Shown: positions 3,010 to 23,102, counted from the stretch's first letter. The stretch is DNA of 27,064 nucleotides from an uncultured Nitrospiraceae bacterium (GCA_963705105.1 CAVPIW010000018.1:1-27064), one strand, 5' to 3'. Notes: generated by a model from the sequence alone, not told the origin. Program-made: numbers and translations.

Positions 3010-3063
3010 GAAATACCTCTTTTGTCATTTACAAAAACTGTCAACGGCAAAAACAGCCCTTCA

Positions 3064-3289
3064 GCCACAGAGGTCACAGAGATCACAGAGATAAACTCAG
3101 ACAAGCTATTGACCCGGCAATTAAACGGATGAACCGCGCTGTGCTTTGTCATTCCGTCTTGACCGGGGCTTGCGGCAATGACAGTAGTATTGGTATTTAA
3201 TTGCCGGTTTAAATATGGGCTTTTCTCGGTGCCCTCCGAGCTCTCTGTGGCTAATATATCTGTTCTTTGCGCTCTTTGCGGCTTTGCGC
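3064..3289. repeat. Nested inverted-repeat mosaic in divergent intergenic region
   Basis: GCCACAGAG-GTCACAGAG-ATCACAGAG (3064-3090) is mirrored at 3225-3251. Perfect 12-bp IR CCGGCAATTAAA at 3114-3125/3196-3207. Central TGTCATT..AATGACA at 3147-3183. CTTTGCG x3 at 3265-3289. Confidence 0.8.
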
Positions 3290-3309: not shown

Positions 3310-3341
3310 TTCCTTTCACTGTCACTCACACTCACACTGTC
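3310..3341 (-). repeat. CAGTGT/GAGTGT hexamer tract ending in CAGTGAAAGGAA
   Basis: Reverse complement reads ACAGTGTGAGTGTGAGTGACAGTGAAAGGAA, matching the units at 10585-10725. Confidence 0.8.
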
Positions 3342-3435
3342 TCCGTGTTGCTTTAACCTGAAGAGCCTGATTATACTATATTTTCAGCCCTTTTCCAAGG
3401 GCCTCATCATCACAGAAAGAGGTGAAAGTAAAGAT

Positions 3436-5368: not shown

Positions 5369-5581
5369 CCCTGTCGCTGCAATGGAAAGGCGGGACGAAG
5401 CGCCTCAAAGCCTCGCTGATAGCGAGAATGATCGTTTATTATTGGTGTATCGGGAATTCATCTTTGATGTCATCCGCCATCTGCCTGAAAGGGTCTGGAC
5501 GGGAAGGCAAAGGTTTCGCAGCACCGAGGCTTGTCGGCGCATACGCCCCGCCTTTCCGGATGTCCGATTGCAACAGTAAGG
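5369..5581 (+). mobile_element. Palindromic MITE-like element, copy 1 (type A, 213 bp)
   Basis: Left end CCCTGTCGCTGCAATGGAAAGGCGGGACGAAGCGCC; right end GGCGCATACGCCCCGCCTTTCCGGATGTCCGATTGCAACAGTAAGG; flanks TGAG/TGAA. Confidence 0.8.
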
Positions 5582-6909
5582 TGAAATTCTTTATCTCTAC
5601 TCTCGGGTGTCCGAAGAACACCGTCGACTCCCGTCATATGGGCGATGAACTGACGAGACAGGGGTTCATACCCGCGGAGGAGCAGGATGCCGACGTCATC
5701 CTTGTGAATACCTGCGGGTTCATCAGGGACGCCAAGGAGGAGTCGATCGGGGAGATCCTGAGGCTTGCAAAGCTGAGAGAGCAGGGGAAGCGGCTCGTTG
5801 TCTTCGGATGCCTCGCGGAGCGGTACCGCGAGGACCTGGAGCGGGAGATGCCCGAGATCGACGGCCTCTGGGGCGTCGGCGACACGGCTGGCATCCTGAG
5901 CTATCTGGACACCCTCAGGACAGAGGGGGAGGACCGTCATGACCGGTCAGGCCACCCCCTCACGCCGTCTCCGGCCGGATCTTACGCCTATCTGAAGGTT
6001 GCCGACGGCTGTGACAGGAAATGCACCTTCTGCGTGATCCCCTCCATCAGGGGCAGGTTCAGGAGCATCGACGCGGAGGCCCTTCTGGAGGAGGCAGGGG
6101 AACTGATTAAAGGAGGCGCGCGGGAGCTTGTTCTCGTGGCCCAGGACATCACGAGCTACGGCAGGGAGTTGAAGGGCTGGAACCTTGCATCCCTCCTCCG
6201 CGGCCTCGTGGCGCTGCCCGGTGATTTTTGGGTCCGTCTTCTCTATCTCTATCCGACGGCATTGGACGACGAGCTGCTGTCCCTCATCGCCACGGAAGAG
6301 AAGATCGTCAAGTATCTCGACATCCCGCTCCAGCATTCCGAGGACCGGCTCCTGCGGCTTATGGGACGAAGGGGGACGAAGAAGGAGTATCTGAAGATCC
6401 TGAGGAAGATCAGGAAGGCCATTCCCGGTGTGACTCTCCGGACGACCTTCATCGTGGGGTTCCCGACGGAGACGGAGGAGGAGTTCAACGGACTCGTGGA
6501 CTTCATCGAGGAGGTGAGGTTCGACCGGCTCGGCGTCTTTGCATTCTCAAAGGAGGAGGGAACGCCGTCGGCGCTGTTGAAAGGACAGGTGCCCGACAGG
6601 GTGAAGAAGCGGAGGCTCGACGAGATCATGCGGCGCCAGGCCCTCATCTCTGCCGGGTTGAATGCGGAGCTTGTGGGCAAGCGTTTCAGGGCCGTCATCG
6701 ACGAGGTCGGCGGCGGCGTCGCCATCGGCCGTCTCCCCTCGCAGGCGCCGGAGATCGACGGGGTGGTGATCATAAAAACAGTCGATGATCGGCAACCGGC
6801 TGTCGGCGACATCGTGACCGTCGGGATTACCGGGGCTCACGATTACGATGTCGAGGCGGTGATCGTCGCACCTGTCTCGCAATCATGTCCTATCCTCGTG
6901 CCAGGGTAG
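5581..6909 (+). CDS. rimO: Ribosomal protein S12 methylthiotransferase RimO
   Basis: LGCPKNTVDS and NTCGFI N-terminal motifs, radical SAM motif CDRKCTFC, and a C-terminal TRAM region with QAPEIDG. Start placed at GTG 5581 because the upstream extension is the repeat element. Confidence 0.95.
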   Translation: MKFFISTLGCPKNTVDSRHMGDELTRQGFIPAEEQDADVILVNTCGFIRDAKEESIGEILRLAKLREQGKRLVVFGCLAERYREDLEREMPEIDGLWGVGDTAGILSYLDTLRTEGEDRHDRSGHPLTPSPAGSYAYLKVADGCDRKCTFCVIPSIRGRFRSIDAEALLEEAGELIKGGARELVLVAQDITSYGRELKGWNLASLLRGLVALPGDFWVRLLYLYPTALDDELLSLIATEEKIVKYLDIPLQHSEDRLLRLMGRRGTKKEYLKILRKIRKAIPGVTLRTTFIVGFPTETEEEFNGLVDFIEEVRFDRLGVFAFSKEEGTPSALLKGQVPDRVKKRRLDEIMRRQALISAGLNAELVGKRFRAVIDEVGGGVAIGRLPSQAPEIDGVVIIKTVDDRQPAVGDIVTVGITGAHDYDVEAVIVAPVSQSCPILVPG

Positions 6910-7114
6910 CTTTCATGAAAAGGCGGGACGAAATGCCTCAAGCCTTGCTGATAGCGAGCATGATTATTTGAAATTGGGCATCCGGGATTCATTCCTTTAT
7001 TTCATCAACGGCGGGCCTGATATATTCCTCATGGGAAGACAAAGGTTTCGCAGCACCAGGGCTTCTCGGCATCATCGCCCCGCCTTTCCGGATGTCTTGT
7101 TGCAGCGATCAAGG
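6901..7114 (+). mobile_element. Palindromic MITE-like element, copy 2 (type A, ~214 bp)
   Basis: TGAAAAGGCGGGACGAAATGCC...GGCATCATCGCCCCGCCTTTCCGGATGTCTTGTTGCAGCGATCAAGG; colinear with copy 1. The outer left end is degenerate. Confidence 0.78.
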
Positions 7115-7161
7115 TCATTCCGGGCATCAGTGGCAGCACGTGGCAACGAACTGGGAGAAAC

Positions 7162-8004
7162 ATGAAGAAATTTCCCTTTTTGCACATCATCCTTTTCTGC
7201 GCCACCTTCCTGACGACCCTCGCGGCAGGGGCGCTCCATATGGGGATCGACATCCTGAAGCAGCCGGAAAGGATCATCGAGGGGTTCCCCTTCGCCGGGA
7301 CCCTCATGTGCATCCTCCTTTTCCACGAATTCTCCCACTATATCGCGTCGAAGATGCATCACATCACGGCGACGCTTCCCTATTTCATCCCTGCACCTCC
7401 TTATCCATTCATCATCGGCACCTTCGGCGCCTTCATCAAGATGAAATCCCCCATTGTGACGAGAAAGGCCCTCGTCGACATCGGCGCCTCGGGACCGATT
7501 GCGGGGTTCATCATTTCCATCATCGCCTGCCTGGCCGGCCTCAGCATGTCGGAGACAAGGCTGCCCCAGGCGGAGAAAGGGCTGATCTTAGGAGATTCGC
7601 TGCTCTTCTCCTTTCTCTCACAAATCGTGCTCGGTGTGACGCCTGATCAGCACGACATCCTCCTGCACCCCGTCGCCTTTGCAGGCTGGATCGGTCTCTT
7701 TGTCACCTCCCTGAACCTCATCCCCGTGGGACAGCTCGACGGAGGGCATATAGCCTTCGCGTTGCTTGGTGAGAGGCACAGGCAGCTTTCCCTTGTGCTC
7801 GTCTTCGTCCTCGCCTTCATGGGCATCTTCTTCTGGGAGGGGTGGATCCTCTGGGCCGTGCTTCTTGTCGTCCTCGGGATCCGCCATCCGCCCGTCATCC
7901 ACTGGGAGATTCCCCTTGACTCAAGACGGCGTTTTGTCGGGTTCCTGTCCCTGGTCATATTCGTCATCACCTTCATCCCCTCACCGTTCCGGCTCGTCCT
8001 GTGA
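7162..8004 (+). CDS. Site-2 protease family (M50) membrane metalloprotease
   Basis: HEFSH zinc motif, DIGASGP, NLIPVGQLDGGHI and multiple TM segments. Confidence 0.92.
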   Translation: MKKFPFLHIILFCATFLTTLAAGALHMGIDILKQPERIIEGFPFAGTLMCILLFHEFSHYIASKMHHITATLPYFIPAPPYPFIIGTFGAFIKMKSPIVTRKALVDIGASGPIAGFIISIIACLAGLSMSETRLPQAEKGLILGDSLLFSFLSQIVLGVTPDQHDILLHPVAFAGWIGLFVTSLNLIPVGQLDGGHIAFALLGERHRQLSLVLVFVLAFMGIFFWEGWILWAVLLVVLGIRHPPVIHWEIPLDSRRRFVGFLSLVIFVITFIPSPFRLVL

Positions 8005-8834
8005 AAGCGTCCGTCATATCGAGCCCGTCCAATCCTCTTGTCAAGGAGATCCTGAAGATCAAAGCGGGGAAAAAGACCGGTCAGGAGGGACGATGCATCA
8101 TCGAAGGTCCCCATCTGATCGAGATGGCCCTCTCGTCACAAGCTGCCATCGAGAGGGTCCTGTTCACCGCCGAATTCCTTGCCCGCCAGGACGGCCGCAG
8201 GTTGCTGAGGTCCCTCATGGGGAAGGTGCCCGCCGGTGGCATCATCGAGATGTCCGGTTCTGTCATCGACCGTCTCAGCGATACGGAGACGCCCCAGGGC
8301 ATTCTGGCAGTGGTGGTGTTCGGCGCCACGGCACCGGAAGACCTAATTATCGGTGAATCTCCCCTCGTGGTCATCTGTGACGGCATCCAGGACCCCGGCA
8401 ACCTCGGGTCGCTCATCAGGGTGTCTGACGCAGCAGGTGCGAACGCCGTCTTCATCCTCCCCGGGACATGCAATCCTTACCTCCCCAAAGTCATCAGGTC
8501 GACGGCAGGGAGCATCTTTCACATCCCCCTCGTCCCTATCGGTCCGGAGGCATGCGTGGATTTTCTGAGAACACATCATATCCCGCTTGCCATCGCCGAC
8601 GTGCGCGGAGCGGTCTCCCTGTTTGACGCGGACCTCACGGGCCCGCTCGCCCTCGCCTTCGGGAGCGAAGCGAGGGGCGCCGGCAGGGTGCTGAGAGAGA
8701 AGGCCGATGTGTTGCTGAAAATCCCCATCGTGGGGAAGGCTGAGAGCCTCAATGTCGCCATGGCGGCATCAATCTGCCTCTACGAAGCTGTCAGGCAGAG
8801 AACAGCCCCCCGCTGCAAGCCCGGCCGGAAGTGA
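8001..8834 (+). CDS. TrmH/SpoU family RNA 2'-O-methyltransferase
   Basis: Motifs IQDPGNLGSLIR, GSEARG and ESLNVAMAASI. GTGA overlap with the upstream gene. Confidence 0.93.
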   Translation: MKASVISSPSNPLVKEILKIKAGKKTGQEGRCIIEGPHLIEMALSSQAAIERVLFTAEFLARQDGRRLLRSLMGKVPAGGIIEMSGSVIDRLSDTETPQGILAVVVFGATAPEDLIIGESPLVVICDGIQDPGNLGSLIRVSDAAGANAVFILPGTCNPYLPKVIRSTAGSIFHIPLVPIGPEACVDFLRTHHIPLAIADVRGAVSLFDADLTGPLALAFGSEARGAGRVLREKADVLLKIPIVGKAESLNVAMAASICLYEAVRQRTAPRCKPGRK

Positions 8835-8851
8835 CCTTGTTTTTGCATGAA

Positions 8852-8919
8852 CCTTTCAGCTGCGTGAAAAGGCGGGGCGAATGCCCCGCCTGTCCCGGAA
8901 GTGTATTGCAACGATAAGG
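8852..8919 (+). mobile_element. Minimal (68 bp) copy 3 of the palindromic element, ends only
   Basis: CCTTTCAGCTGCGTGAAAAGGCGGGGC-GAAT-GCCCCGCCTGTCCCGGAAGTGTATTGCAACGATAAGG. Confidence 0.8.
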
Positions 8920-9068
8920 TTATTTTGGACACGAGTGAATCCATTTTTTTGTTGACGGACCCCATATCGCGTCGTATACTTTTTTTAGGGATGCCGTCTG
9001 AATCATTCGGCAGACAACGGGGGGGATACACGACGAGAGAGATGTGAAGGAGCGCGGGGATTCCGTTT

Positions 9069-9827
9069 ATGGGTATATCCGCAAAATCACGGGAGCAGTA
9101 CCGGATACTCGTCATCGATGACGATGCGGCCGACTATCTTAGCGCCCTCGGGACGATCAGGAACTGCATGGTGCTCCATCTGCCCGACCGGCTGAGGGCC
9201 TGCGAGTTTTTCTTCCACAACCATGTGGACCTCGTCATTCTTGACCATGGAACAGGTCAGGACTGCACGAAACTCCTGCAATTCCTCAAGTCAGTGAGAC
9301 CGTCCATACCCGTCGTCACCGTCACGGCCTGCGGTTCCGAGAGCCTTGCCGTGTCGGTATTCAGGAACGGCGCCCGTGATTATTTCAAGAAGCCCCTCGA
9401 AATGCCATCCTTCATGGTCTCTGTCGGGGACGCCCTGGGCATACGGACGATATTGAAAAGGGCCGACTCGGAGCGTTCCAGGGATGGTCTTTTCCGCGCC
9501 GTCGGATATATCAATGATCATTATGACACGCAGCTGAAGCTTTGCCAGGTTGCCCGCGAGGCGGGAATGAGCGTGTCCTGCTTTGAGCGGCTCTTCAAGG
9601 TCAAGATGGGCATGACGTTCACCCGATACGCGAATCAACTTCGCATATCGAAAGCCCTTGCCATGCTGAAGGAGAGCGACCTTGCCATCAGTGACATCGC
9701 TTTTGCCTGCGGATTCACCAACCAGTTCCATTTTGCGAGGACCTTCAGGAAGATCACGAAGTCGTCGCCGAGTATCGTCCGGAGACATCAAAACGGCCAG
9801 GTGAGAGAAAAGAGACAAAGCTCCTGA
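9069..9827 (+). CDS. Response regulator, REC domain plus AraC-type HTH
   Basis: REC motifs ILVIDDD, VILD and GARDYFKKP; AraC motifs ISDIAFACGFTNQFHFARTFRK. Confidence 0.88.
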   Translation: MGISAKSREQYRILVIDDDAADYLSALGTIRNCMVLHLPDRLRACEFFFHNHVDLVILDHGTGQDCTKLLQFLKSVRPSIPVVTVTACGSESLAVSVFRNGARDYFKKPLEMPSFMVSVGDALGIRTILKRADSERSRDGLFRAVGYINDHYDTQLKLCQVAREAGMSVSCFERLFKVKMGMTFTRYANQLRISKALAMLKESDLAISDIAFACGFTNQFHFARTFRKITKSSPSIVRRHQNGQVREKRQSS

Positions 9828-9853
9828 CGCCCGTCCGGCTTTCCTCGTCTAAA

Positions 9854-10047
9854 CCTTATCGTTGCAATACACCCCCGGGAAAGGCGGGGCGTATGCGCCG
9901 AAAACCTTGCTGCGGCGACACCTGTATCGAGACTGAAGAGGAGGCATAAGCCAATGTCAGGAGAATTGGGCATCCTTTCCGACACTGACACTCACACTGA
10001 CACTGTTTTCAGAGTGCTTCGCCCCGCCTTTCTATGCAGCTACAAAG
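9854..10047 (-). mobile_element. Palindromic MITE-like element, copy 4 (type B, 194 bp, inverted)
   Basis: CCTTATCGTTGCAATACACCCCCGGGAAAGGCGGGGCG...CGCCCCGCCTTTCTATGCAGCTACAAAG; perfect TAAA/TAAA flanks; contains a GACACT/CACACT hexamer tract. Confidence 0.85.
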
Positions 10048-10074
10048 TAAAGAAAATCCCCCCTCTGTCGATAT
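10048..10074 (+). promoter_or_regulatory. Putative sigma28 (FliA) promoter of cheW
   Basis: TAAA-N15-GTCGATAT versus consensus TAAA-N15-GCCGATAA, upstream of a chemotaxis gene. Confidence 0.7.
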
Positions 10075-10129
10075 GAATGTAACATCTCTTGTCATGGAAA
10101 TACGGTGTAAATCATAGAAGGAGAACAGC

Positions 10130-10576
10130 GTGAAGGCGACGTCCGGACAGGAAGTACTGCAGTTGGTGACATTTAAGCTGGGTGATGAGGAGTACGCAGT
10201 CGATATCCTGAAGGTTCAGGAGATCAACCGGATGGTGCACATTACCGCCGTTCCGAATGCCGACCGTTCCCTTGAAGGCGTCATCAACCTCAGAGGCAGG
10301 GTCATCCCCGTCACAAATCTTCGGAAGAAGTTCGGGCTTGATTCGAAGGAACTCGATGGCCATTCACGCATCATGGTCGTCGATGTCGGTACCACCATCG
10401 GTCTCATCGTCGATTCCGTGTCGGAAGTGCTCAGGCTCCCCTCAGATACGGTCGAACCGCCGCCGCACATCGCCGGAAACGGCAGCACCGACTATGTAAT
10501 GGGCATCGGCAAGCTCGAAGACCGGCTGCTCATCCTTCTCGACATTGAAAAGCTCATGGGTAAGGGGAAGGAATAG
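10130..10576 (+). CDS. cheW: Chemotaxis coupling protein CheW
   Basis: Motifs LVTFKLGDEEYAVDILKVQEI, GVINLRGRVIPV and GLIVDSVSEV; SD AAGGAG. Confidence 0.96.
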   Translation: MKATSGQEVLQLVTFKLGDEEYAVDILKVQEINRMVHITAVPNADRSLEGVINLRGRVIPVTNLRKKFGLDSKELDGHSRIMVVDVGTTIGLIVDSVSEVLRLPSDTVEPPPHIAGNGSTDYVMGIGKLEDRLLILLDIEKLMGKGKE

Positions 10577-10584
10577 GTGCAAAA

Positions 10585-10725
10585 GCAGTGTGAGTGTGAG
10601 TGCGAGTGTCAGTTTCAGTGTCAGTGAAAGGAATAATAGCAGTGTGAGTGCGCGTGTGAGTGCGCGTGTCAGTGTCAGTGAAAGGAATATGTCGGGGTGT
10701 GAGTGGCAGTGGCAGTGAAAGAAAT
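10585..10725 (+). repeat. Three-unit tandem array of hexamer tracts, each ending in CAGTGAAAG(G/A)AAT
   Basis: GCAGTGTGAGTG...TCAGTGAAAGGAATA twice plus a shorter third unit. Confidence 0.85.
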
Positions 10726-10730
10726 GTTTC

Positions 10731-10751
10731 GGGCCCTTCGGGGAAGGGCCC
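10731..10751. terminator. GC-rich hairpin between convergent cheW and M48 genes
   Basis: GGGCCCTTC-GGG-GAAGGGCCC perfect 9-bp stem; weak U-rich tail on the minus strand. Confidence 0.6.
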
Positions 10752-10770
10752 CCACAATATATTGATCCTT

Positions 10771-12201
10771 TTACTGCCTTATTGCCGGGATGCGTGACGC
10801 CGCGTGTTTCCCCATCTCATTGTCCGGAGCGACCTTCACCTGCAGGGAATAGGCCTGATACGCCGAGGACTGATCACCCGTGTTCTCATAGCAGATCCCA
10901 AGGACGCCGAAGATTTCAGGATGCTTGGGGTTCGCTTCGGCGTACTTTTTCAGATGGGGAATCGCCTCCCGGTAGGCCTTTGTCCTGTAGCGGCTCATGC
11001 CGAGGAAATAATGGGATGACGCATCCTCGGGAAAGAGGGAGAGGGCCCGCTTCAAATTTTCGACGCCGGCGCCGTAATTGCCCCTGAAGTACTGCGATAT
11101 CCCCATGCCGCGCAATGCGGGCTGGTATGCGTTGTTGATGTTCAGCGCCGCCGTGAAAAAGCGATCCGCCGACGCGTAGTCCTTCTTTTTCAGCATGATA
11201 TAACCCTTCAGAGAAGGGAAGGGCGCCTCGGTCCGGTCCGCGGCGATGGCACCGTCGACGTGTCTCTCCGCTTCCGCCAGGCTGTTCTTCTGATAGGCCC
11301 TCGCCGCCGGGTCATAGTGATCACGGTACACCTTGCTTGTCTTCCTGATGTCGGCGGACATGCGCTGGAAGCGCTCTTTGCCTGTCCCGTCACCGACTCT
11401 GACGTAAGGCGGCACTGCAGCGATCATCTGGCGGATCTCGTCGATACGCACCGATGTCCTCGGATGCGTCGACAGGAGGTCCTCGAAGAACCCCCTTTCC
11501 TGGGGTTCCTTGCCGATGGAGCGGAGGTAATCCTGCGAGATTCTGTCGAGGTTCTGATGGGCCCTGACGGCATTCTCCGGATCGTATCCCAGCCTGGTCA
11601 TGTACTGGATACCGAGGCGATCGGCCTCCAGTTCATCGTCTCTCCCGTATTTCAGCAGCAGGAGACTGCTCCCGATGGCGCCTGCATTGAGCAGCGCGTC
11701 GGAGTAAGCCTGTCCGCCCAGGGCGGTCCCCGCCGCTGCAAGGCCGATCTGCTGGAGCATGCCGTATGACGTCTGACGGGCCGAATGGCGGGCGGCGACA
11801 TGGCCCATCTCGTGGCCCATGACGAAGGCGAACTCAGCCTCGTTGTCGAGACCGGCGAGAAGTCCCCGGGTCATGACGACGTGGCCTGGAATGGCCCAGG
11901 CATTGGGGACGGAGCTGTTCTGGACGGCGAAATCAACGGGGAGATTGGGCCGGTGCGAGACGCCGTGGATGTTCCGGACGACCCCTGTCAGATATGTCCG
12001 CAGTTGATCGTCCCTGTAAGGTCCTCCGCCCCCTTCCGCCCCCCAGAGTGCGTTGGGATAGAGGTCACGGCCCATCTTGATCTCCTGTTCCTCGGATACG
12101 AGCATCAGTTCGCTCTGCCCCGTCACGGGGTTGGTGGCGCAGCCCAGTAGCGACAAAGTCAGCAGACAGACGACAATGAGGGAAGACACGAGCTTTTTCA
12201 T
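10771..12201 (-). CDS. M48 family metalloprotease lipoprotein with C-terminal TPR repeats (BepA/LoiP-like)
   Basis: Lipobox LLGC; motifs PNAWAIPG, HEMGH, ELEADRLG and LSTHP; TPR-like helices. Confidence 0.92.
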   Translation of the reverse strand: MKKLVSSLIVVCLLTLSLLGCATNPVTGQSELMLVSEEQEIKMGRDLYPNALWGAEGGGGPYRDDQLRTYLTGVVRNIHGVSHRPNLPVDFAVQNSSVPNAWAIPGHVVMTRGLLAGLDNEAEFAFVMGHEMGHVAARHSARQTSYGMLQQIGLAAAGTALGGQAYSDALLNAGAIGSSLLLLKYGRDDELEADRLGIQYMTRLGYDPENAVRAHQNLDRISQDYLRSIGKEPQERGFFEDLLSTHPRTSVRIDEIRQMIAAVPPYVRVGDGTGKERFQRMSADIRKTSKVYRDHYDPAARAYQKNSLAEAERHVDGAIAADRTEAPFPSLKGYIMLKKKDYASADRFFTAALNINNAYQPALRGMGISQYFRGNYGAGVENLKRALSLFPEDASSHYFLGMSRYRTKAYREAIPHLKKYAEANPKHPEIFGVLGICYENTGDQSSAYQAYSLQVKVAPDNEMGKHAASRIPAIRQ

Positions 12202-13088
12202 GACGCGATATACCTCCCCGGGTTTTCCGTTATTGCTTTCATTATATCATCTTCAGGAAATCCCCGGTCGATCAGATTTCGGGCTGCCGCAACGACGCTG
12301 CAAGCCCCTCCGATGAGCGTTCCGTGTCTGTCGGCAAGGGCCTGTGGGCGCATGCCGCCGTCTTTCCTCGTCCCTGCGACGGAATCCGACACGATGATGA
12401 TCCTCCCGGGATCCTTGATCCTGAATATGAGATCGACAGTCATAGGATGGAGATGGAAGGGGTCTGCTATGATCTCCGCGTACACATCCCTGTTCATCAA
12501 TCCGAATCCCGCCAGGCCGGGCTCCCGGTGATGGAGAGTCCTCATGGCATTGAAGAGGTGGGTGACGCACCGGGCGCCGGCCCTGAAGCCGGCTTCAGCT
12601 TCCGCATAGGTCGCGTCGGAATGGCCCATGCTGACCCGGATCCCGCCGTCGGCAAGGCGGGTGATCAGCTTCGGCGCCCCGTCGAGTTCCGGAGCGAGTG
12701 TGACGATGCGCACTATATCCTCAAAGCCGTCGAGGAGCGCATTGAGATTGAATTCCGAGGGGTCGAGGAATGTGGCGGCATTGAGGGACCCGCATCGCGC
12801 GGGATTGAGAAAGGGTCCCTCGAGGTGGACGCCGATGATGCGGGCTGGTCCATGAGTGCCGGATGCAGGAGCACTCTCCCTATGAACCTGTTCCTGTTGA
12901 TCCATAGCCTCCCTGATTACCGCCATCTGCTGCCGCATCACCGGGACGGGGGAGGCATAGAGGGTGGGGATGATCTCGTCGACACCCAGGGCTCCGTGGA
13001 TCCTTGAGATCTCGAGGATGTGCTCCCCGAGGGTTGTTCTCGTGTCATACCCGCCGATCCCGTGGGTGTGGATGTCGATGATCTTCAT
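12198..13088 (-). CDS. nagA: N-acetylglucosamine-6-phosphate deacetylase (compact, 296 aa)
   Basis: Motifs IDIHTHG, HLEGPFLN, TLAPE, GHSDAT, THLFNAM and VSDS. Confidence 0.9.
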   Translation of the reverse strand: MKIIDIHTHGIGGYDTRTTLGEHILEISRIHGALGVDEIIPTLYASPVPVMRQQMAVIREAMDQQEQVHRESAPASGTHGPARIIGVHLEGPFLNPARCGSLNAATFLDPSEFNLNALLDGFEDIVRIVTLAPELDGAPKLITRLADGGIRVSMGHSDATYAEAEAGFRAGARCVTHLFNAMRTLHHREPGLAGFGLMNRDVYAEIIADPFHLHPMTVDLIFRIKDPGRIIIVSDSVAGTRKDGGMRPQALADRHGTLIGGACSVVAAARNLIDRGFPEDDIMKAITENPGRYIAS

Positions 13089-13124
13089 GGCCCGCAGATC
13101 TGCTATGATAGCATGGAAGGAACA

Positions 13125-13863
13125 ATGAATGAATCAACGCCATACCAGGAGAGGATCGACTTCGGGACATGGACGACCCGGGACCTCGATGTCCTTATCC
13201 GGCGGGCCTCGTCGCTGAAGGGCATTGCCCGGAAAGTCGCATTCATCTCGCGACAGTTTCTCGGTCTGCCCTATGGCGCATCGACACTTATCGGCGGCGA
13301 GGGAAGGCGGGAGGTATTCGTCATCAACCTCCGCCATGTGGACTGTTTCACCTTCCTGGATTATGTGGAGGCCTTGCGCCTGTCTGACACCGTTGTTGCG
13401 TTCAAGGACATGGTGAAGCGTGTTCGTTACCGGCAGGGGATCGTGTGCTACAAGGAGAGGAACCATTTTTTCACCGACTGGACCGCCGGGAACAATGTCA
13501 GGGATGTGACCGGGACTGTCGGCAGGGGTGCAACAAGGACATACGAAAAAAGACTCAATGATCGCGGAAACGGTTCCCTTCTTTCTGCCCGGCATTCCTG
13601 CCCGAAACCGGTTTATTTCCTGTATCCCCGCGGCTGGTCTCAGCGGGGAAGTCTGCCGGAGGCTGCATACGGGCGATTATGTCGGTGTCTGTTCCGAGTC
13701 GCCCGGTCTCGATGTTTCACACGTCGGGATAGTCGTCCGCCGCAGGGGGGCGCTCATGCTGAGACACGCCTCGTCATTGCCGGCCCACGGCATGGTCGTC
13801 GAACAGGGACTCATCGATTATATGGAAGGCAAACCGGGCATCATCGTCCTGCGGCCTGTCTAA
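13125..13863 (+). pseudogene. DUF1460 / N-acetylmuramoyl-L-alanine amidase-like protein, split by +1 frameshift (~13575-13580)
   Basis: Frame 1 has FLGLPY..VDCFTFLDYVEAL..RYRQG..RNHFFTDW. Frame 2 continues GDYVG..GLDVSHVGI..HASS..GIIVLRP. Could be a sequencing error. Confidence 0.75.
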
Positions 13864-13864
13864 A

Positions 13865-14060
13865 CCTCCGTTGCATGCAGAGGCGGAACGAAGTACCTTA
13901 AAGCCTTGCTGATACCGATGCTGTCTCCGGGAAGACAGATCTGGTTCAAAGCCTTTCCAATGCGATGATGAGACATGTCGAGGTGTTCAGCGCCTGTCGC
14001 CTGACGGGCCGTTGATATCAATAGACACGGCAAAGTGTGGTCCGGTGACGAATAATAAGG
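13865..14060 (+). mobile_element. Copy 5: degenerate left end of the element plus ~140-bp internal module; canonical right end absent
   Basis: CCTCCGTTGCATGCAGAGGCGGAACGAAGTACCTTAAAGCCTTGCTGATA follows the TAA stop, then a module shared with 19778-19915. Confidence 0.7.
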
Positions 14061-14077
14061 CGTGAAACTCCCACTGA

Positions 14078-15316
14078 TCATTGCGACCTGTTCTCCAGCG
14101 AATCCGTTTCCCTGCGGAGCACCCAGAGGAGCCAGAGGCCGGGCAGGGCCGTCACCGTCGTCAGGATGAAAAAGGTGATCCATCCCGTCAGCTCGACGAC
14201 ATATCCCGACGTCGGGGAGATGAAGACACGCCCGAGGGCCGCGAGGGAGGAGAGGAGGGCGAACTGCGTCGCGCTGTACCGGTGATTGCAGAGCGCCATG
14301 AGGAGCGATACGAACGCCGCCGTGCCCATGCCTCCCGAGAGGTTCTCGAAGGCGATAGCGAAGATCATAACGGGATAGCTCTTTCCCGTCCATGCGAGGA
14401 GGGCGAACGAAAGATTGGAGACGGCCTGAAGGATACCGAAGGCGAGCAGGGACCGGAAAAGGCCGAGCTTCACCATGAGGGCGCCTCCGGCGGCGGCGCC
14501 GATGAGTGAGGCGGCAAGACCCATACCTTTGTTGATCGTGCCGACATCGGTCGGAGTAAACCCCACGCCGCGGATGAGGAAGGTTGTTGTCAGTGTGCCT
14601 GCATAGGCGTCGCCCATTTTGTAGAGGACCATGAGAAGGAGAAAGGAGACAGCTGCGGGACGGGACAGGAACTCCCTGAGGGGGCCGACGATCGCTTCCT
14701 GGAGGGTCTTCGGGGCCGATGCTGTGAAAACGGGCTCGGGTCCGGCTAAGGTCGTCAAGATCCCGATCCCGACGAGCGATGCCATGATCAGATAGGTGTT
14801 GCGCCAGCCGATCACATCGGACAGGATGAGGGCGAGGGCGCCGGAAACAAGCATCGCAACGCGGTACCCTGTCACAAAGACGGCAGCGCCTATCCCCCGC
14901 TCGACATCGCGGAGGAGGTCCGTGCGGTAGGCGTCGATGGCGATGTCCTGGGAGGCCGAGAAGAAGGCGACGGTGAGAGCGAGGAGGGCGAGCATGAGCG
15001 GCGCACTCTGGGGTGAACGGGAGCTCATGACAGCAATGGCTCCCATGAGCGCGAGCTGGAGGGGCAGGATCCAGCCGCGGCGCCTCCCGAGCCAGGGAGG
15101 AACAAACCGGTCCATGACGGGAGACCAGAGGAACTTGAGCGTGTAGGGCAAACCGACGAGGGCGAAGACACCGATCGTCCTGATGTCGACGCCCTCGATG
15201 GTCATCCATGCCTGCAGGGTCCCTCCCGTCAATGCGAGGGGAAGGCCTGACGAAAAACCGAGGAAGGGCATGACTGCAACGCGGCGGTTGAGGCAGGCCC
15301 GGACAGAAGCTGTCAA
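14078..15316 (-). CDS. ampG: AmpG family muropeptide MFS permease
   Basis: Motifs LGFSSGLP, LKFLWSPVMD, GRRRGW, SASQDIAIDAYR and YSATQFALLSS. Confidence 0.95.
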   Translation of the reverse strand: MTASVRACLNRRVAVMPFLGFSSGLPLALTGGTLQAWMTIEGVDIRTIGVFALVGLPYTLKFLWSPVMDRFVPPWLGRRRGWILPLQLALMGAIAVMSSRSPQSAPLMLALLALTVAFFSASQDIAIDAYRTDLLRDVERGIGAAVFVTGYRVAMLVSGALALILSDVIGWRNTYLIMASLVGIGILTTLAGPEPVFTASAPKTLQEAIVGPLREFLSRPAAVSFLLLMVLYKMGDAYAGTLTTTFLIRGVGFTPTDVGTINKGMGLAASLIGAAAGGALMVKLGLFRSLLAFGILQAVSNLSFALLAWTGKSYPVMIFAIAFENLSGGMGTAAFVSLLMALCNHRYSATQFALLSSLAALGRVFISPTSGYVVELTGWITFFILTTVTALPGLWLLWVLRRETDSLENRSQ

Positions 15317-15321
15317 TTCGG

Positions 15322-16075
15322 TCAGTTCCGAACTCTTCTGTGAATCTCGCCCGATGAGGTCACTCCCCAGACCGTCCCGTCGGCTGCGGCTGAGATATAA
15401 TCAATCCGTCCGTCCAGCTTTTTCCAGTCACTGCCTGCCCACCGGAAGACCTCCCCCATGTCGTTGACGCCCCAAATGTTTCCGGAACTGCCCACAGAGA
15501 CCTGTTTGAACGTTCCGGGTATTTTGGACCATGTCGTTCCTGTCCACCGGTAGACTTCATCTGTGAATTGTGACCCCCCAGACAGTGCCGTCCTGTGCAA
15601 CCGAAATATTTCTCAGGGTGCCGTTCATGAACTTCCAGTCGCTGCCTGTCCACCTGTACACTTCGTTGGCGACGGTCACTCCCCAAACGTTGCTGGAACT
15701 TCCCACGGCGACCTGCCTCAATGTTCCGGGCATTTTGGACCATGAGGAACCGGTCCAGCGAAACAATTCATTGTTCGGCGCGACTCCCCAGACGGTGCCG
15801 TCCGCCGCGGCGGATACATTGCTCATCTTCCCCTCGATTTTCTGCCAACCTCCCCCGGTCCACCGGTAGACTTCATTCGACGGGTTCGAGCCCCAGATCT
15901 GTTGACTGCTCCCGACGGACACCTGTTTCAGGATGCCCTCGACGCGCTGCCAAACGGCCTGATCATCAGGCGACACACTTGAAGAAGTCGTAATGCATCC
16001 AGTGGATCCGAGCGTGACGGCGAGAGCAAGCATCACGAGACATAACCGCATTGTCCGGTACAGCAATCCGTTCAT
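15322..16075 (-). pseudogene. Tectonin-repeat beta-propeller lipoprotein (6 x 35-aa repeats), split by +1 frameshift (~15565-15572)
   Basis: Repeats W..I.G.L..VSV....VWGV....EVYRWTG continue across ORFs 15557-16075 and 15322-15600. Signal peptide ends in STGC. Confidence 0.78.
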
Positions 16076-16268
16076 AATGTTCCCTCCTTGTGAATAAATT
16101 TTACGGCGGAATGCACCTCAAAATGATATCACAGAAGACCACCGGTGTCTATAATGGTGCTTGTCGCAGCACGAAAAGACGCGAGGAAGTGTCAGTGAAA
16201 GGAGTACTTCATTTATATTCATCTAAACAATGGATTCGGGACTGCACTCGATGGCCGGCAGTTCAGGT

Positions 16269-18803
16269 TTATTCGAAGCTGATGAATCGCTTCGGGTCCA
16301 CCTTTTGCGCCACCCGGGACGGGATGATGCCGGCGACGAGTATCGTCACGAACAGGAAAGCCGTCACGAGGGAAAGAAAAAGGACGGGCACCCTGAAGGT
16401 TATCTCCCATCCGAAGGAAATCTTGTTGATTACGTGGATGAAAATGATGCTCAGGATAGGGCCCATGGTCAGGCCGAGCACGATGCCGCCGAGACCGATG
16501 ATCCCCGCTGTGATGGTGAGCGTCGCTCTGATCTGTCGCCACGATCCCCCGAGGTAGCGGATGATGCTGATGTCCCGTTTCTTTTCGAGGACGAGGGCGA
16601 GAAGGATGTTGATCACCCCGATGACGGAGACGAGGATCGCGATGAGCTCGATCGCATAGGTGATCGCGAAGCTCTTGTTGAAAATGCTCATGATTGTGTT
16701 GCGGAGATCCCCGTTGTTCATGATAGTCAGGGCATAGCCGGCAGGGAGCCGCTGCTTCAGCGTCCCGATGAACGAGGCGGCGTCGGCCCCCTCCCGAAGA
16801 TAGACGCTGATCTGTGTCGCGTCATCGAGACCCCAGTATTCCTTGAGCCAGCGTCTGTCCATGAAGATGAATCCCGACGTGGCCGCATAGTTCATGAAGC
16901 TGTGGCTGACCGTGAAGGTCTTTTTCCCTTTCGGTGTCATGAGTTCTATCCTGTCGCCCGGCTGAAGGCCCTGTTTCAGCCTCAGGAAGTCCGAAACGGC
17001 GACTTTCCCTTCGTCCCTCAGCGCCCGGAGCTCTTCCGGGCGAATGCGCGACCCGAAGCGGGTTTCGAGATACCGGCCGTAGAGTTCAGTGTTTCCAAAG
17101 GCTACGGTCACCGGCGACCCGAGGAACTCGGACTGCAACGCCCGGTATCGGTCGATCCCCCCGATGTCAGGAAGGCCCTCGATCGTCCTGATCACATCCT
17201 CCGACAGGGGGAAAAAGCAGTAATTCGAGACGCAGGAGGCGGGTTTGATGTAGACGTCTGCGGAGACGTTTCTGTCTATCCACTCTTTGAGGGACGTCCT
17301 GAAGGAGAAGATGAGCGTCAGGAGGGCCACGATGAGGGCGCTGCTGATGGCGACGCACATGAGGGCAACGGAAAAACGGTAGAGGCTGCCCCGGATATCG
17401 CCCAGGGCGATTCGGCCCGGCGACCTGAACATCCGCCCCGTCACCCTGCGCAGGAGCCTCAGCAAGACGAGCAGGAAGGAGGGCGATAGGAGAGTGAACC
17501 CGAGAATGATAAGAAGGATACCCGTATAGGCGAGGAAAGGAAAGGGGAAGGGCATGAAACGGTAATCCGCATAGGCCGCCGCCATTCCCGTGATGACCGA
17601 CAGGAGGCCGAGGGTGCTGAAAAGAACGAGGTATCTCCTGTACCGGCCTTCGAAGGACCCCTCCCTCAGGGTCTCGCCGGGATGGATTCTCGACGCCTCA
17701 ACGGATGGAAAGAGAGAGGCGATGAACGACACGGAAAGGCCGAGGACCAGTGCCGTCAGCCAGTCCTGAAATGTGAGGAGATAATCGGAGACGGCGACGT
17801 TACTGTACATGGAGGAGATGGTCCTCTCGACGGCGATGACGGAGAAGTACGCGAAGACCTGACCGAGGACGATCCCGGAGAGAGAGCCGACAGAGCCGAT
17901 GATGAGGCCCTGCAGGGTGAAGAGGATCATGATTGTTCTCCGGTCCGCGCCGAGTCCCCTCAGGATGCCGATTTCCGTCCTGCGCTTGACGACGGAGATG
18001 AAGATCGTATTGTAGAGCAGAAAAACCCCGACGAGGATGGAGATGAGACTGACGAACTGCAGGTTGTACTGAAAGGAGGAGAGGAGCGACTTCTGGTTCC
18101 TGATGAGCTCGGACTTCCTTTCGAGAACAAGGTCCGACGGCAGTATCCTCGAAATCTCCGCCGCCTGCCGCTCGTCGGCGATGAGATCGATTCTTGTGAG
18201 CTGTCCTGTCCTGCCGAAGAGTTCCTGAAAATTGCCGATGTCCATAATGAAGGAACGGGTTGAGAGGACGTCCCTGTCGAGAATGTCGGCGACGAGGAGG
18301 GAGTACTCACGGTCATACACGAGCACCTGCAGGGTGTCACCCCTGCGTACCGACGCGGCCGCGGCAAAGGACGCTGTGATGAGGACGGCGTTCTGATTTC
18401 TGTAAAAAGTCTCGATATCGGTCGCTTTGCGGGGTGTCGCGCCGATGAACCTGAGGGACTTGACCGTGTCGATCCCGCTGATCTCGATTGTTTCGTCCCG
18501 CGCCCGGACGTACCCCGTCGCTTTCATGACGGGGAAACAGGCGCCGGCCTTCTGCAGGACCAGGGGGTAAAGGGTCTCGTCGAAGTCGATTCCGGACAGG
18601 CTCAGGATCTCATGAGTCGCCGCCGGGTTGATCCCCCTGATTTCCGTCTCGAAAGCATTCATCGCCCTGTCCGAGGCGACCTTCACGCCCGTGAAAAGGC
18701 CGATGCCGAGGGCGACGCCGACAATGGAGAGGGCCGTGAGGAAGCGCTCCTCCCTGATCGTTCTGAGGATGATGAGGCGGAGGAGTTTGATCGTCCTGTT
18801 CAT
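16269..18803 (-). CDS. ABC transporter permease, double FtsX/MacB-type (AttF/G-like)
   Basis: 844 aa with two FtsX-type motifs (RRTEIGILRGLGA; KRDISIIRYLGG) and TM clusters. Confidence 0.9.
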   Translation of the reverse strand: MNRTIKLLRLIILRTIREERFLTALSIVGVALGIGLFTGVKVASDRAMNAFETEIRGINPAATHEILSLSGIDFDETLYPLVLQKAGACFPVMKATGYVRARDETIEISGIDTVKSLRFIGATPRKATDIETFYRNQNAVLITASFAAAASVRRGDTLQVLVYDREYSLLVADILDRDVLSTRSFIMDIGNFQELFGRTGQLTRIDLIADERQAAEISRILPSDLVLERKSELIRNQKSLLSSFQYNLQFVSLISILVGVFLLYNTIFISVVKRRTEIGILRGLGADRRTIMILFTLQGLIIGSVGSLSGIVLGQVFAYFSVIAVERTISSMYSNVAVSDYLLTFQDWLTALVLGLSVSFIASLFPSVEASRIHPGETLREGSFEGRYRRYLVLFSTLGLLSVITGMAAAYADYRFMPFPFPFLAYTGILLIILGFTLLSPSFLLVLLRLLRRVTGRMFRSPGRIALGDIRGSLYRFSVALMCVAISSALIVALLTLIFSFRTSLKEWIDRNVSADVYIKPASCVSNYCFFPLSEDVIRTIEGLPDIGGIDRYRALQSEFLGSPVTVAFGNTELYGRYLETRFGSRIRPEELRALRDEGKVAVSDFLRLKQGLQPGDRIELMTPKGKKTFTVSHSFMNYAATSGFIFMDRRWLKEYWGLDDATQISVYLREGADAASFIGTLKQRLPAGYALTIMNNGDLRNTIMSIFNKSFAITYAIELIAILVSVIGVINILLALVLEKKRDISIIRYLGGSWRQIRATLTITAGIIGLGGIVLGLTMGPILSIIFIHVINKISFGWEITFRVPVLFLSLVTAFLFVTILVAGIIPSRVAQKVDPKRFISFE

Positions 18804-18828
18804 GCCGGTATCGCAGCGATCATGTTCA

Positions 18829-19040
18829 CCTTCCCGTTGCGTGAAAAGGCGGGGCGAAGCGCCTCAAAGCCTTGCTGAAGGCGACGATGAGCATTGCCAG
18901 GTTCGTGTTTCAGGATTCCACTCTTTGTGTAATCGACCATTGGCTTGAAAAGGGATCTTCCGCGACGGTTGTGGTGTCGCCGCATCAAGGTTTTCGGCGC
19001 ATACACCCCGCCTTCCCGGATGGCATATGCGACGATAAGG
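18829..19040 (+). mobile_element. Palindromic MITE-like element, copy 6 (type A, 212 bp)
   Basis: CCTTCCCGTTGCGTGAAAAGGCGGGGCGAAGCGCCTCAAAGCCTTGCTG...CAAGGTTTTCGGCGCATACACCCCGCCTTCCCGG..GCGACGATAAGG; perfect TTCA/TTCA flanks. Confidence 0.85.
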
Positions 19041-19041
19041 T

Positions 19042-19686
19042 TCATTCCGCTATGCTGCCGTCCCTGATACGGACGATCCGCCCGGCGTATGCGGCGATGT
19101 GCTGCTCGTGGGTGACGAGAACGAGGGTCTTTCCCGACTCCGCTGTGACGCCGCAGATGAGTTTCATGATCGATTCGCCGGTCCGGCTGTCGAGGCTCCC
19201 TGTCGGTTCGTCGGCAAGAATGATAGCCGGGTCATGGATGAGGGCACGCACGATGGCGACGCGCTGCTGCTCCCCGCCGGACAGCTGATAGGGATAGGAG
19301 GAGGCCTTTTCCCTGAGCCCGACGCGTCCGAGGAAGTCGGCGGCCCGCCGCTCGTCGTCGATGCCGTTCAGCAGGAGGGGCAAATGGACATTCTCCAGGA
19401 CGGTGATGTTCGGCAGGAGGTTGAAGAACTGGAAGATGAAGCCGATCCTCTTCCTCCGGTGGAGCGTGAGCTGCTCATCGGTGTACCGCGTGATGTCGTC
19501 GCCGCCGATGACGATATGCCCGCTGTCGGGCCTGTCCATGCCGCCGATGAGGTTCAGCAGCGTCGATTTGCCCGACCCCGAACTCCCCATGACGGCGACG
19601 AACTCTCCCGATCCGATCGTGAGGGTGACGTCCCTGAGGACAGGGGTGTCGCCGAAATGCCTGTTGATTCCTTCAAGGAGAATCAT
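19042..19686 (-). CDS. ABC transporter ATP-binding protein (LolD/MacB-like)
   Basis: Motifs GSSGSGKST, LSGGEQQRVAI, ILADEPTG and VTH. Confidence 0.95.
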   Translation of the reverse strand: MILLEGINRHFGDTPVLRDVTLTIGSGEFVAVMGSSGSGKSTLLNLIGGMDRPDSGHIVIGGDDITRYTDEQLTLHRRKRIGFIFQFFNLLPNITVLENVHLPLLLNGIDDERRAADFLGRVGLREKASSYPYQLSGGEQQRVAIVRALIHDPAIILADEPTGSLDSRTGESIMKLICGVTAESGKTLVLVTHEQHIAAYAGRIVRIRDGSIAE

Positions 19687-19692
19687 CGTTTA

Positions 19693-20053
19693 CCGCGCAG
19701 TTGCATGAAAAGGCGGGACAAAACGCTCTGAAAACAGTGTCAGTGACAGTGTGAGTGTCAGTGTCGGTGTCACTACCGCTGCTTCCGGGAGGGCAGATAC
19801 GGTTCAAAGCCTTTCCAATGCGATGATGAGACTTTTCCAGGTGTTCAGTGCCCGTTACCTGACGGGCACTTGGTATCAACTGACACGGCAAAGGGTGGCC
19901 TGGTGATGAATAAGGTATCTTAGCGGAAAGGCTTTTCACCACATCAGCCTTCCCGTCAGTCCTTTTGTCGTCCGGTCCCATCCGTTGTCTCCTGTCTGAT
20001 GTTTCTCGGCGCTTTCGCCCCGCCTTTCCCGGGAGTGTATTGCAACGATAAGG
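19693..20053 (+). mobile_element. Palindromic MITE-like element, copy 7 (composite, 361 bp)
   Basis: Left end, hexamer tract, ~138-bp module shared with copy 5, unique spacer, then right end CGCCCCGCCTTTCCCGGGAGTGTATTGCAACGATAAGG; flanks TTTA/TTCA. Confidence 0.82.
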
Positions 20054-22830: not shown

Positions 22831-23026
22831 CCTCGTAGTTACGTAAAAAGGCGGGGCGAAGCGCTCTGGAAAACATTGTCAGTGATAGTGTGAGTGTCAG
22901 CAAAAGCTTCATTATTTTCAGACATTGACCCGAAAAGCTGCCTTTTGTGACGGTTAATGTGGTCGCCGCATCAAGGTTTTCGGCGCATACACCCCGCCTT
23001 TCCGGAAATCCTATTGCAACAAGAAG
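22831..23026 (+). mobile_element. Palindromic MITE-like element, copy 8 (type B, 196 bp)
   Basis: AAAAAGGCGGGGCGAAGCGCTCTGGAAAAC, hexamer tract, then CAAGGTTTTCGGCGCATACACCCCGCCTTTCCGG..TATTGCAACAAGAAG; flanks TAAC/TGAC. Confidence 0.82.
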
Positions 23027-23102
23027 TGACAAAATTGGTTAACTGAGGGCTCAAATCAGCAATATTTCCCAATAATAGCAATAAATTACAACATTTTATC
23101 GC

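Follow-up and report, generated by a model that had tools for sequence, protein, structure and literature searches.

The 27,064-nt window analysed here carries a small non-coding MITE, present as copies 1, 2 and 6 and as five further members or derivatives. The two arms of the outer stem of this element covary beyond shared ancestry, and copying of one arm onto the other lies, at least partly, behind the mirrored changes. The hairpin core between the ends is conserved beyond those ends and across genera. The arm covariation, the IS1380-type ends and the family-wide core of this MITE are newly described; a full-text search of the literature found no paper on the family, though supplementary MITE catalogues could list it. 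Covariation is usually read as proof of a functional fold; with several hundred natural replicates in one genome, in which 'compensatory' pairs are seen to come from copying between arms, this family allows one to test how far covariation depends on selection.

Copies, ends and the IS1380 connection

A profile search of the genome of the window (4.23 Mb, 19 contigs) gave 775 matches, 306 of them full-length, and profiles of the two ends detected 543 pairs facing each other, of which 508 were left-right (about 500 paired ends), with size classes near 195, 212, 270 and 350 bp. The family occupies ~2.7% of the genome. The 306 full copies and 508 left-right pairs make this a short, non-coding element with many dispersed copies, as expected of a MITE, and the interior shows no 3-nt codon phase (p 0.41 and 0.54). 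Clustering of the full copies yielded families A (n=157), B1 (n=46), B2 (n=19) and B3 (n=20), plus smaller ones. Each of the three copies in the window belongs to a different family (Table 1), and copy 6 lies between the genes for an ABC ATPase and a permease, both on the minus strand.

Table 1. Features of the MITE and of other repeats in the window. Columns are those of the structural model; quoted arms are those cited in the sequence-only reading.
Feature	Positions	Strand	Remarks
Other intergenic repeat types	3063-3252, 3310-3349, 10581-10733		9-bp tandem units in inverted blocks; also 6-bp tandem units resembling the repeats found in place of the left inner arm in 195-bp copies
Copy 1 (B2, 213 bp)	5369-5581	+	between htpG and rimO; partial decay of ends
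Copy 1, quoted arms	5400-5404/5536-5540 and 5408-5415/5525-5532
Copy 2 (B1, 212 bp)	6902-7113	+	after rimO; left end decayed
Copy 2, quoted arms	6933-6937/7068-7072 and 6940-6947/7057-7064
68-bp internal-deletion derivative	8852-8919	+	both ends and a short outer-stem hairpin
~195-bp class copy	9854-10047	-	short tandem repeats in place of left inner arm; no inner stem
Left end, then truncated copy of nested hairpin M2	13864-14055	+	M2 part 13920-14055
Gene with five 105-bp coding repeats	15422-15876	-
Copy 6, left 4-bp target-site duplication	18825-18828	+	identical to 19041-19044
Copy 6 (A, 212 bp)	18829-19040	+	intact CC...GG ends
Copy 6, left terminus	18829-18842	+	resembles IRL of an IS1380 subgroup
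Copy 6, outer stem, left arm, columns 15-28	18843-18856	+	partner 19004-19017; location of most mirrored changes
Copy 6, inner stem, left arm, columns 31-57	18859-18885	+	conserved 2-nt loop 18864-18865
Copy 6, quoted arms	18867-18874/18986-18993
Copy 6, interior loop, about 90 nt	18886-18975	+	variable sequence, constant length
Copy 6, inner stem, right arm, columns 149-174	18976-19000	+
Copy 6, outer stem, right arm, columns 178-191	19004-19017	+
Copy 6, right terminus	19027-19040	+	resembles IRR of the same IS1380 subgroup
Copy 6, right 4-bp target-site duplication	19041-19044	+
361-bp long form	19693-20053	+	same ends; interior is M2 (about 19786-19955)
Second ~195-bp class copy	22831-23027	+

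The nested hairpin M2 is a 168-bp paralogue of the same architecture without ends of its own. The genome holds 93 full copies of it, with 13 mirrored changes against 1.7 after shuffling, 7 of which are one shared change. Families X (22 copies) and B3 are carried as cargo in larger repeats, with their core intact and their ends decayed. Two MITE copies (C6:934816 and C10:241471) are themselves interrupted by inserted elements, which we take to be IS1634-like.

The termini of the MITE read CC...GG and form imperfect inverted repeats of ~14 bp. Of the 68 copies whose ends are anchored, 43 are flanked by a 4-bp TNNA target duplication, whereas shuffled flanks give 6.7 (maximum 15); in family A the duplication is perfect in 73/152 copies, and it is perfect in copy 6 too. 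Elements of the IS1380 family have CC...GG ends and make a 4-5-bp AT-rich duplication. PF13701 has matches in 89 of 251 genomes of the order, and of the 30 IS1380 loci returned from the order, three (L032, L036 and L039), all exceeding the NF033539 (IS1380) cut-off, have termini near-identical to those of the MITE and repeat its asymmetry between left and right. Further relatives of these three carry the same ends, with 4-5-bp duplications. The transposases most closely related to the matching one come from records labelled Nitrospirota/Thermodesulfovibrionales.

No IS1380 transposase was found in the genome of the window by a PF13701 search, and the L039 protein, used as query there, had no match. 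None of the 15 DDE_Tnp_1 matches in that genome has matching ends, the listed pairs of up to 3.5 kb include no long element enclosing its own transposase, and a metagenome pattern scan returned one locus only, a plain copy without transposase. The notion of a non-autonomous MITE, which an IS1380-family transposase would mobilise in trans at the ~14-bp ends with a 4-bp TNNA duplication, is well supported by the sequences of the ends and flanks; termini and duplication of this type imply that the MITE moves by protein-bound ends. The hairpin core (model R1) is absent from 52 IS1380 loci, so that the MITE did not arise from those elements by mere internal deletion, although other parents may exist. 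Among the 35 host-family genomes listed, related ones not being independent, the MITE occurs in 4 of the 15 that match PF13701 and in 12 of the 20 that do not.

Covariation and copying between the arms

A sequence-only reading of copies 1, 2 and 6 had proposed copy-specific compensatory base-pair changes in the long stem, with pairing and length under selection. The letters that it quoted for the arms are all present in the sequence, and its lengths (213/214/212) are correct for copies 1 and 6; measured end to end the three copies are 213/212/212. The swaps, however, are not copy-specific but traits of three subfamilies (B2, B1 and A). The C-G to T-A swap at columns 32-173 is found in 43/46 B1 copies, and the C-G/T-A swap at 45-160 divides 45/45 B2-B4 copies from 202/203 A and B1 copies on one branch of the tree. 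Of the 157 A copies, 146 have the G·T seen in copy 6 (columns 41-164), and the T·G of copy 2 at columns 44-161 is shared by 3/46 B1 copies. At columns 31-174 the B1 family has G·T in 39/46 copies and A-T in 3/46, so the 'second double substitution' of copy 2 amounts to one change on a family wobble.

That the arms covary beyond chance is borne out by data other than these swaps. Over nine outer-stem pairs in 473 elements, counted without a tree, we found 63 mirrored changes against 6.3 by chance (maximum 17), alongside 10 double changes that were not mirrored; slid partners give 7-14. Mere shared ancestry of a few subfamilies does account for the swaps first cited, and one nested family contributes about 22 of the 63 mirrored changes. 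However, 35 mirrored changes, in 31 of 414 copies, are left after removal of two nested families, and collapsing near-identical lineages leaves 31 independent mirrored events. On the tree, same-branch double changes number 35 against 7.5 expected (0/2000 permutations as high), 17 of the 21 Watson-Crick double changes are on single copies, and the ten terminal pairs show no excess (33 double changes vs 31.5 expected). The branch counts and the 31 lineages refute shared ancestry as sole source of the outer-stem covariation, and as a general account it is hardly credible. Applied to whole families, RNAalifold gave weak and inconsistent consensus folds.

Copying between arms can be seen directly in single copies. 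At C6:342568 the right arm lacks the 3-nt loop of its family, which is replaced by the 2-nt version of the left arm, and it is a 10-base copy of that arm, private change included. Three positions, one of them a private change, were copied between the arms of C5:210975. About 7 of the 473 copies carry such multi-base tracts, and adjacent dinucleotide changes are mirrored in 3 copies. Transversions make up 15/35 of the mirrored and 104/236 of the single changes, which supports copying, since a stepping-stone route through G·U would favour transitions. Template switching at quasipalindromes is described as equalising the arms in one step and giving apparent compensatory changes, and as yielding multi-base tracts and inverted spacers (PMC8794818, PMC5941160). 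As copying can write 'compensatory' pairs without selection, the swaps seen here are no proof of selection. It should be noted, too, that the mirrored changes are concentrated at columns 19-23, with none at 24-25 and few in the inner stem (3/21), which is unlike the prediction of plain template switching.

A 16-state likelihood model of the outer pairs, which ignores relatedness and takes the decay of the ends as its clock, gave a -lnL of 1401 without any pairing-dependent process, 1331.7 with selection on pairing, 1317.6 with selection plus reset to consensus, 1320.9 with copying plus reset (four parameters) and 1316.0 with everything, the full model retaining both copying and selection. The fit does not separate copying from selection; a simpler version that lacked the reset term preferred selection by itself, with copying estimated at zero. 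A family mismatch at column 26 is still uncorrected in 53/58 B1 copies. Co-conversion had no significant support at column 16 (16/30 vs 158/391 copies, p 0.18), and at column 26 in B1 (2/3 vs 3/55) the copies are too few. The earlier proposal that pairing and length are under selection therefore holds in part: the covariation is strong and loop length is kept across genera, but arm-to-arm copying also makes pairs.

In family A there is hardly any linkage between the left end, the interior and the right end (mean r2 0.03 for sites more than 100 bp apart, 0.35 within 10 bp), which indicates that copies recombine through their arms. Hybrid copies with the same terminus at left and right exist; terminus typing errs on decayed ends, and the finding rests on clear hybrids. 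MITE copies connect distant loci for recombination. The outer-stem word has no Chi-like excess outside the elements (ratios 0.95-1.09). In one element of another genome (L235 in G060), the left outer arm of one subfamily is joined to the right arm of another, and the outer stem pairs poorly.

The inner motif, its range and the strand

Departures at near-invariant columns of family A run at 10.4% in the ends, 6.4% in the interior, 3.6% in the outer stem and 1.3% in the inner blocks, and in the 33 copies whose ends have decayed furthest the inner blocks still stand at 1.6%. Decay of the interior rises with that of the ends (rho 0.31-0.61), whereas decay of the inner blocks does not (rho 0.07), and tree-step counts repeat the same pattern, with the inner blocks tightest. 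Loop and paired bases within these blocks are equally conserved (median 4 vs 3 changes, p 0.88).

A natural control is provided by 118 copies in which tandem repeats replace the left inner arm. Deprived of its partner, the right inner block departs at 1.8% of paired and 2.5% of loop columns, compared with 0.6% and 0.5% in 150 copies that have the partner arm; its decay is 3-5 times higher, while ends and outer stem differ 1.0-1.6 fold. The lower conservation without the partner arm implies that the fold matters in some way. However, loop bases are affected as strongly as paired ones, so that the effect could reflect a different conversion rate, not selection, and the spread of the 118 copies means that the inner stem is unnecessary for spread. 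The suggestion that the element works as a folded single strand rather than only through protein-bound ends gains from the partner effect, but it is weakened by the IS1380-type ends and by those 118 copies, which lack the inner stem and still spread.

Beyond the genome of the window, a covariance model finds the core in 28 of 68 host-family genomes and a sequence-only model in 24/68, and both place it in 15 of the 24 genera of the family. A second genus (G004) has 212-bp copies of the same plan with different pairs at six or more positions. In a two-genus alignment of 35 elements, 89 cells change on both sides vs 40 after shuffling, although the number of pairs that change on both sides (13/36) is not beyond shuffles (75/500). 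Another alignment (A3) has 26/36 pairs changed on both sides, but is model-fitted and includes 8 reverse-strand duplicates, so that the sequence-only matches described below serve as the main test instead. Among 79 elements from 23 genomes, at loci chosen from the best model matches, the outer stem is rewritten yet paired, loop length is 83-102 nt (mode 88), and the 2-nt pyrimidine loop is retained in 69/79 left and 64/79 right arms, with perfected forms in 3 and 3. Read right-to-left, the retained 2x2 loop consists of tandem G·A/A·G, which is known for strong sheared stacking in DNA (PMC8163305). For the best sequence-only match of each of 19 genomes, the element's own right arm is the best partner among the 19 in 13/19 and pairing averages -18.4 kcal/mol with own arms vs -8.9 kcal/mol crossed, the left arms of different genomes being 49% alike; in 3 of the 19 the arms pair no better than shuffles.

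More than one terminus type carries the core. In other genera it occurs with a second CC...GG type and 4-6-bp duplications (L097-L105, L175-L213), and in G140 with a third type. An inner hairpin that outlasts its own ends, in 15 genera and on different ends, points to a function beyond transposase binding.

Could the core persist under no selection at all, kept by conversion between copies and by arm-to-arm copying, with hairpins raising local conversion? Copying plus reset does fit the outer-stem data with only its four parameters, recombination through the arms is free, and a clock based on the target duplications (0.8-4.2% per site) spans the 1.3% of the inner blocks. Yet perfected loops arise in single copies and no family has lost the loop over 23 genomes, the motif is kept even in genomes with few matches, and the interior, which conversion tracts should cover too, ages with the ends. 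We regard the absence of selection as quite improbable.

The equal conservation of loop and paired bases, the held spacing, the faster decay of a lone site and the independence from transcription (see below) would also suit two duplex-DNA sites ~120-130 bp apart, bound by a host or transposase-associated protein, with pairing as a by-product of copying. Such sites would have no need for the fixed differences between the arms (the 2-nt loop and a 2-nt difference in spacing), and a short variable stretch in the motif shifts length and sequence on both arms together; the absence of the core from the 52 IS1380 loci likewise speaks against them, and this reading seems rather improbable to us.

As to the strand, the wobbles had been described as G-U on the left-to-right strand, but copies 1, 2 and 6 show 4 G·T and 6 A·C there. 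Each A·C opposition reads as G·T when the opposite strand is taken. Where a Watson-Crick pair had changed on one side only, the left-to-right strand gave 57 G·T vs 120 A·C in 250 copies; without polymorphic columns the ratio was 20:20 in the outer stem and 18:35 in the inner stem, and in terminal pairs it was 110:112. An even balance of the two had been named as evidence against a folded strand, and the data go part of the way towards it: we find no left-to-right excess of G·U and none tied to transcription, and the strand signal, such as exists, favours right-to-left.

Selection for a functional structured RNA on the right-to-left strand, in which pairing selection compensates and copying only supplies mutations, could build on the last point. 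Arm duplexes are more stable right-to-left in 70/79 elements (partly owing to the tandem G·A loop), own right arms are usually the best partners, pairs change on both sides between genera, and selection on pairs fits as well as copying; the RNA could serve as a processing site or terminator, as reported for Correia and bcr1 transcripts. However, the element shows no orientation bias to host transcription: copies are sense:antisense to flanking genes at 153:139, and divergent genes surround 93 of them, convergent genes 73, in a gene context of 3909 genes that comes from a simple gene finder and contains errors. Stem wobbles ignore the transcribed strand (sense 15:22, antisense 13:16, p 0.8; larger set p 0.15), stems between divergent genes are no less conserved, and whole-element folds are mixed, favouring right-to-left in 9/19 genomes (as RNA) and 46/157 family A copies. 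There is no Rfam match at gathering score in the window or in six homologous loci, and no conserved internal promoter is evident by eye in the core. We consider a structured RNA unlikely.

Genome-wide, the orientation of the MITE follows GC skew (202:121, p 8e-6). The bias is about as strong as that of the genes (563:371), yet independent of neighbouring genes. It may represent an insertion bias of IS1380 or selection on the strand exposed at the fork. Orientation that tracks GC skew, not transcription, argues for a reading at the level of DNA.

Based on these analyses we can present a rough proposal, to which we give even chances: a DNA-level self-copying hairpin around a constrained inner motif. 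The transposase would act on the ~14-bp ends and have no need of the ~170-bp imperfect hairpin between them. Pairing of the arms would take place in single-stranded DNA, with the replication fork as the most likely setting. The copying of one arm onto the other that the tracts show would follow, by template switching or hairpin repair, so that a single step makes a 'compensatory' pair out of a private mutation. Copies also swap parts through their conserved arms, as the loss of linkage shows. The inner motif (its sequence, 2x2 loop and ~88-nt spacing) would be under purifying selection, most likely through recognition of the folded DNA by a putative protein.

More tentatively, the ~170-nt core could be an undescribed, family-wide folded nucleic-acid module that hitch-hikes on several IS1380-type end pairs and aids the spread or retention of its carriers, being seen in folded form by a putative host protein; its parts are a variable paired outer stem, the tandem G·A loop (right-to-left), a bulged inner helix and the ~88-nt loop. 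If so, the module gives its carriers an advantage that autonomous elements lack.

Comparison with known systems

REPINs and integron attC/VCR sites are imperfect hairpins in which certain unpaired bases are conserved; they work as single-stranded DNA in folded form, and their orientation can depend on replication; they have signature motifs of their own and no 4-bp duplication. A folded ssDNA substrate of REPIN or attC type does not fit our element, which has the 4-bp duplication and in which no signature motif was seen.

Bacterial MITEs are short and non-coding, with IS-like terminal inverted repeats and target duplication, and like the present element they are intergenic, reach high copy number, form a long stem-loop and are mobilised in trans by an IS (PMC10969869, PMC3184786). 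Here, unlike in those MITEs, conservation of the inner arms exceeds that of the ends about eightfold, and the core is common to several genera on more than one end type. The sections of the MITE review available to us mention neither IS1380 nor compensatory changes (PMC10969869). With the IS1380 family (NF033539, PF13701; treated in PMC9330008) the element shares near-identical left and right termini in one subgroup, but it has no transposase, and those IS1380 loci have no hairpin core.

A precedent for compensatory changes in a mobile bacterial repeat is bcr1 of the Bacillus cereus group, a mobile repeat of ~155 bp with direct repeats and reported compensatory base pairs that preserve a fold (PMC3184786). 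It is described as being transcribed and as having a two-hairpin cruciform and 5-bp repeats, whereas our element is one long rod with IS1380-type ends in which copying between the arms is seen. Compared with the quasipalindromes at which correction has been described (PMC8794818, PMC5941160), the arms here lie 90-150 bp apart, and fixed internal loops have persisted long, though copying alone should erase loops.
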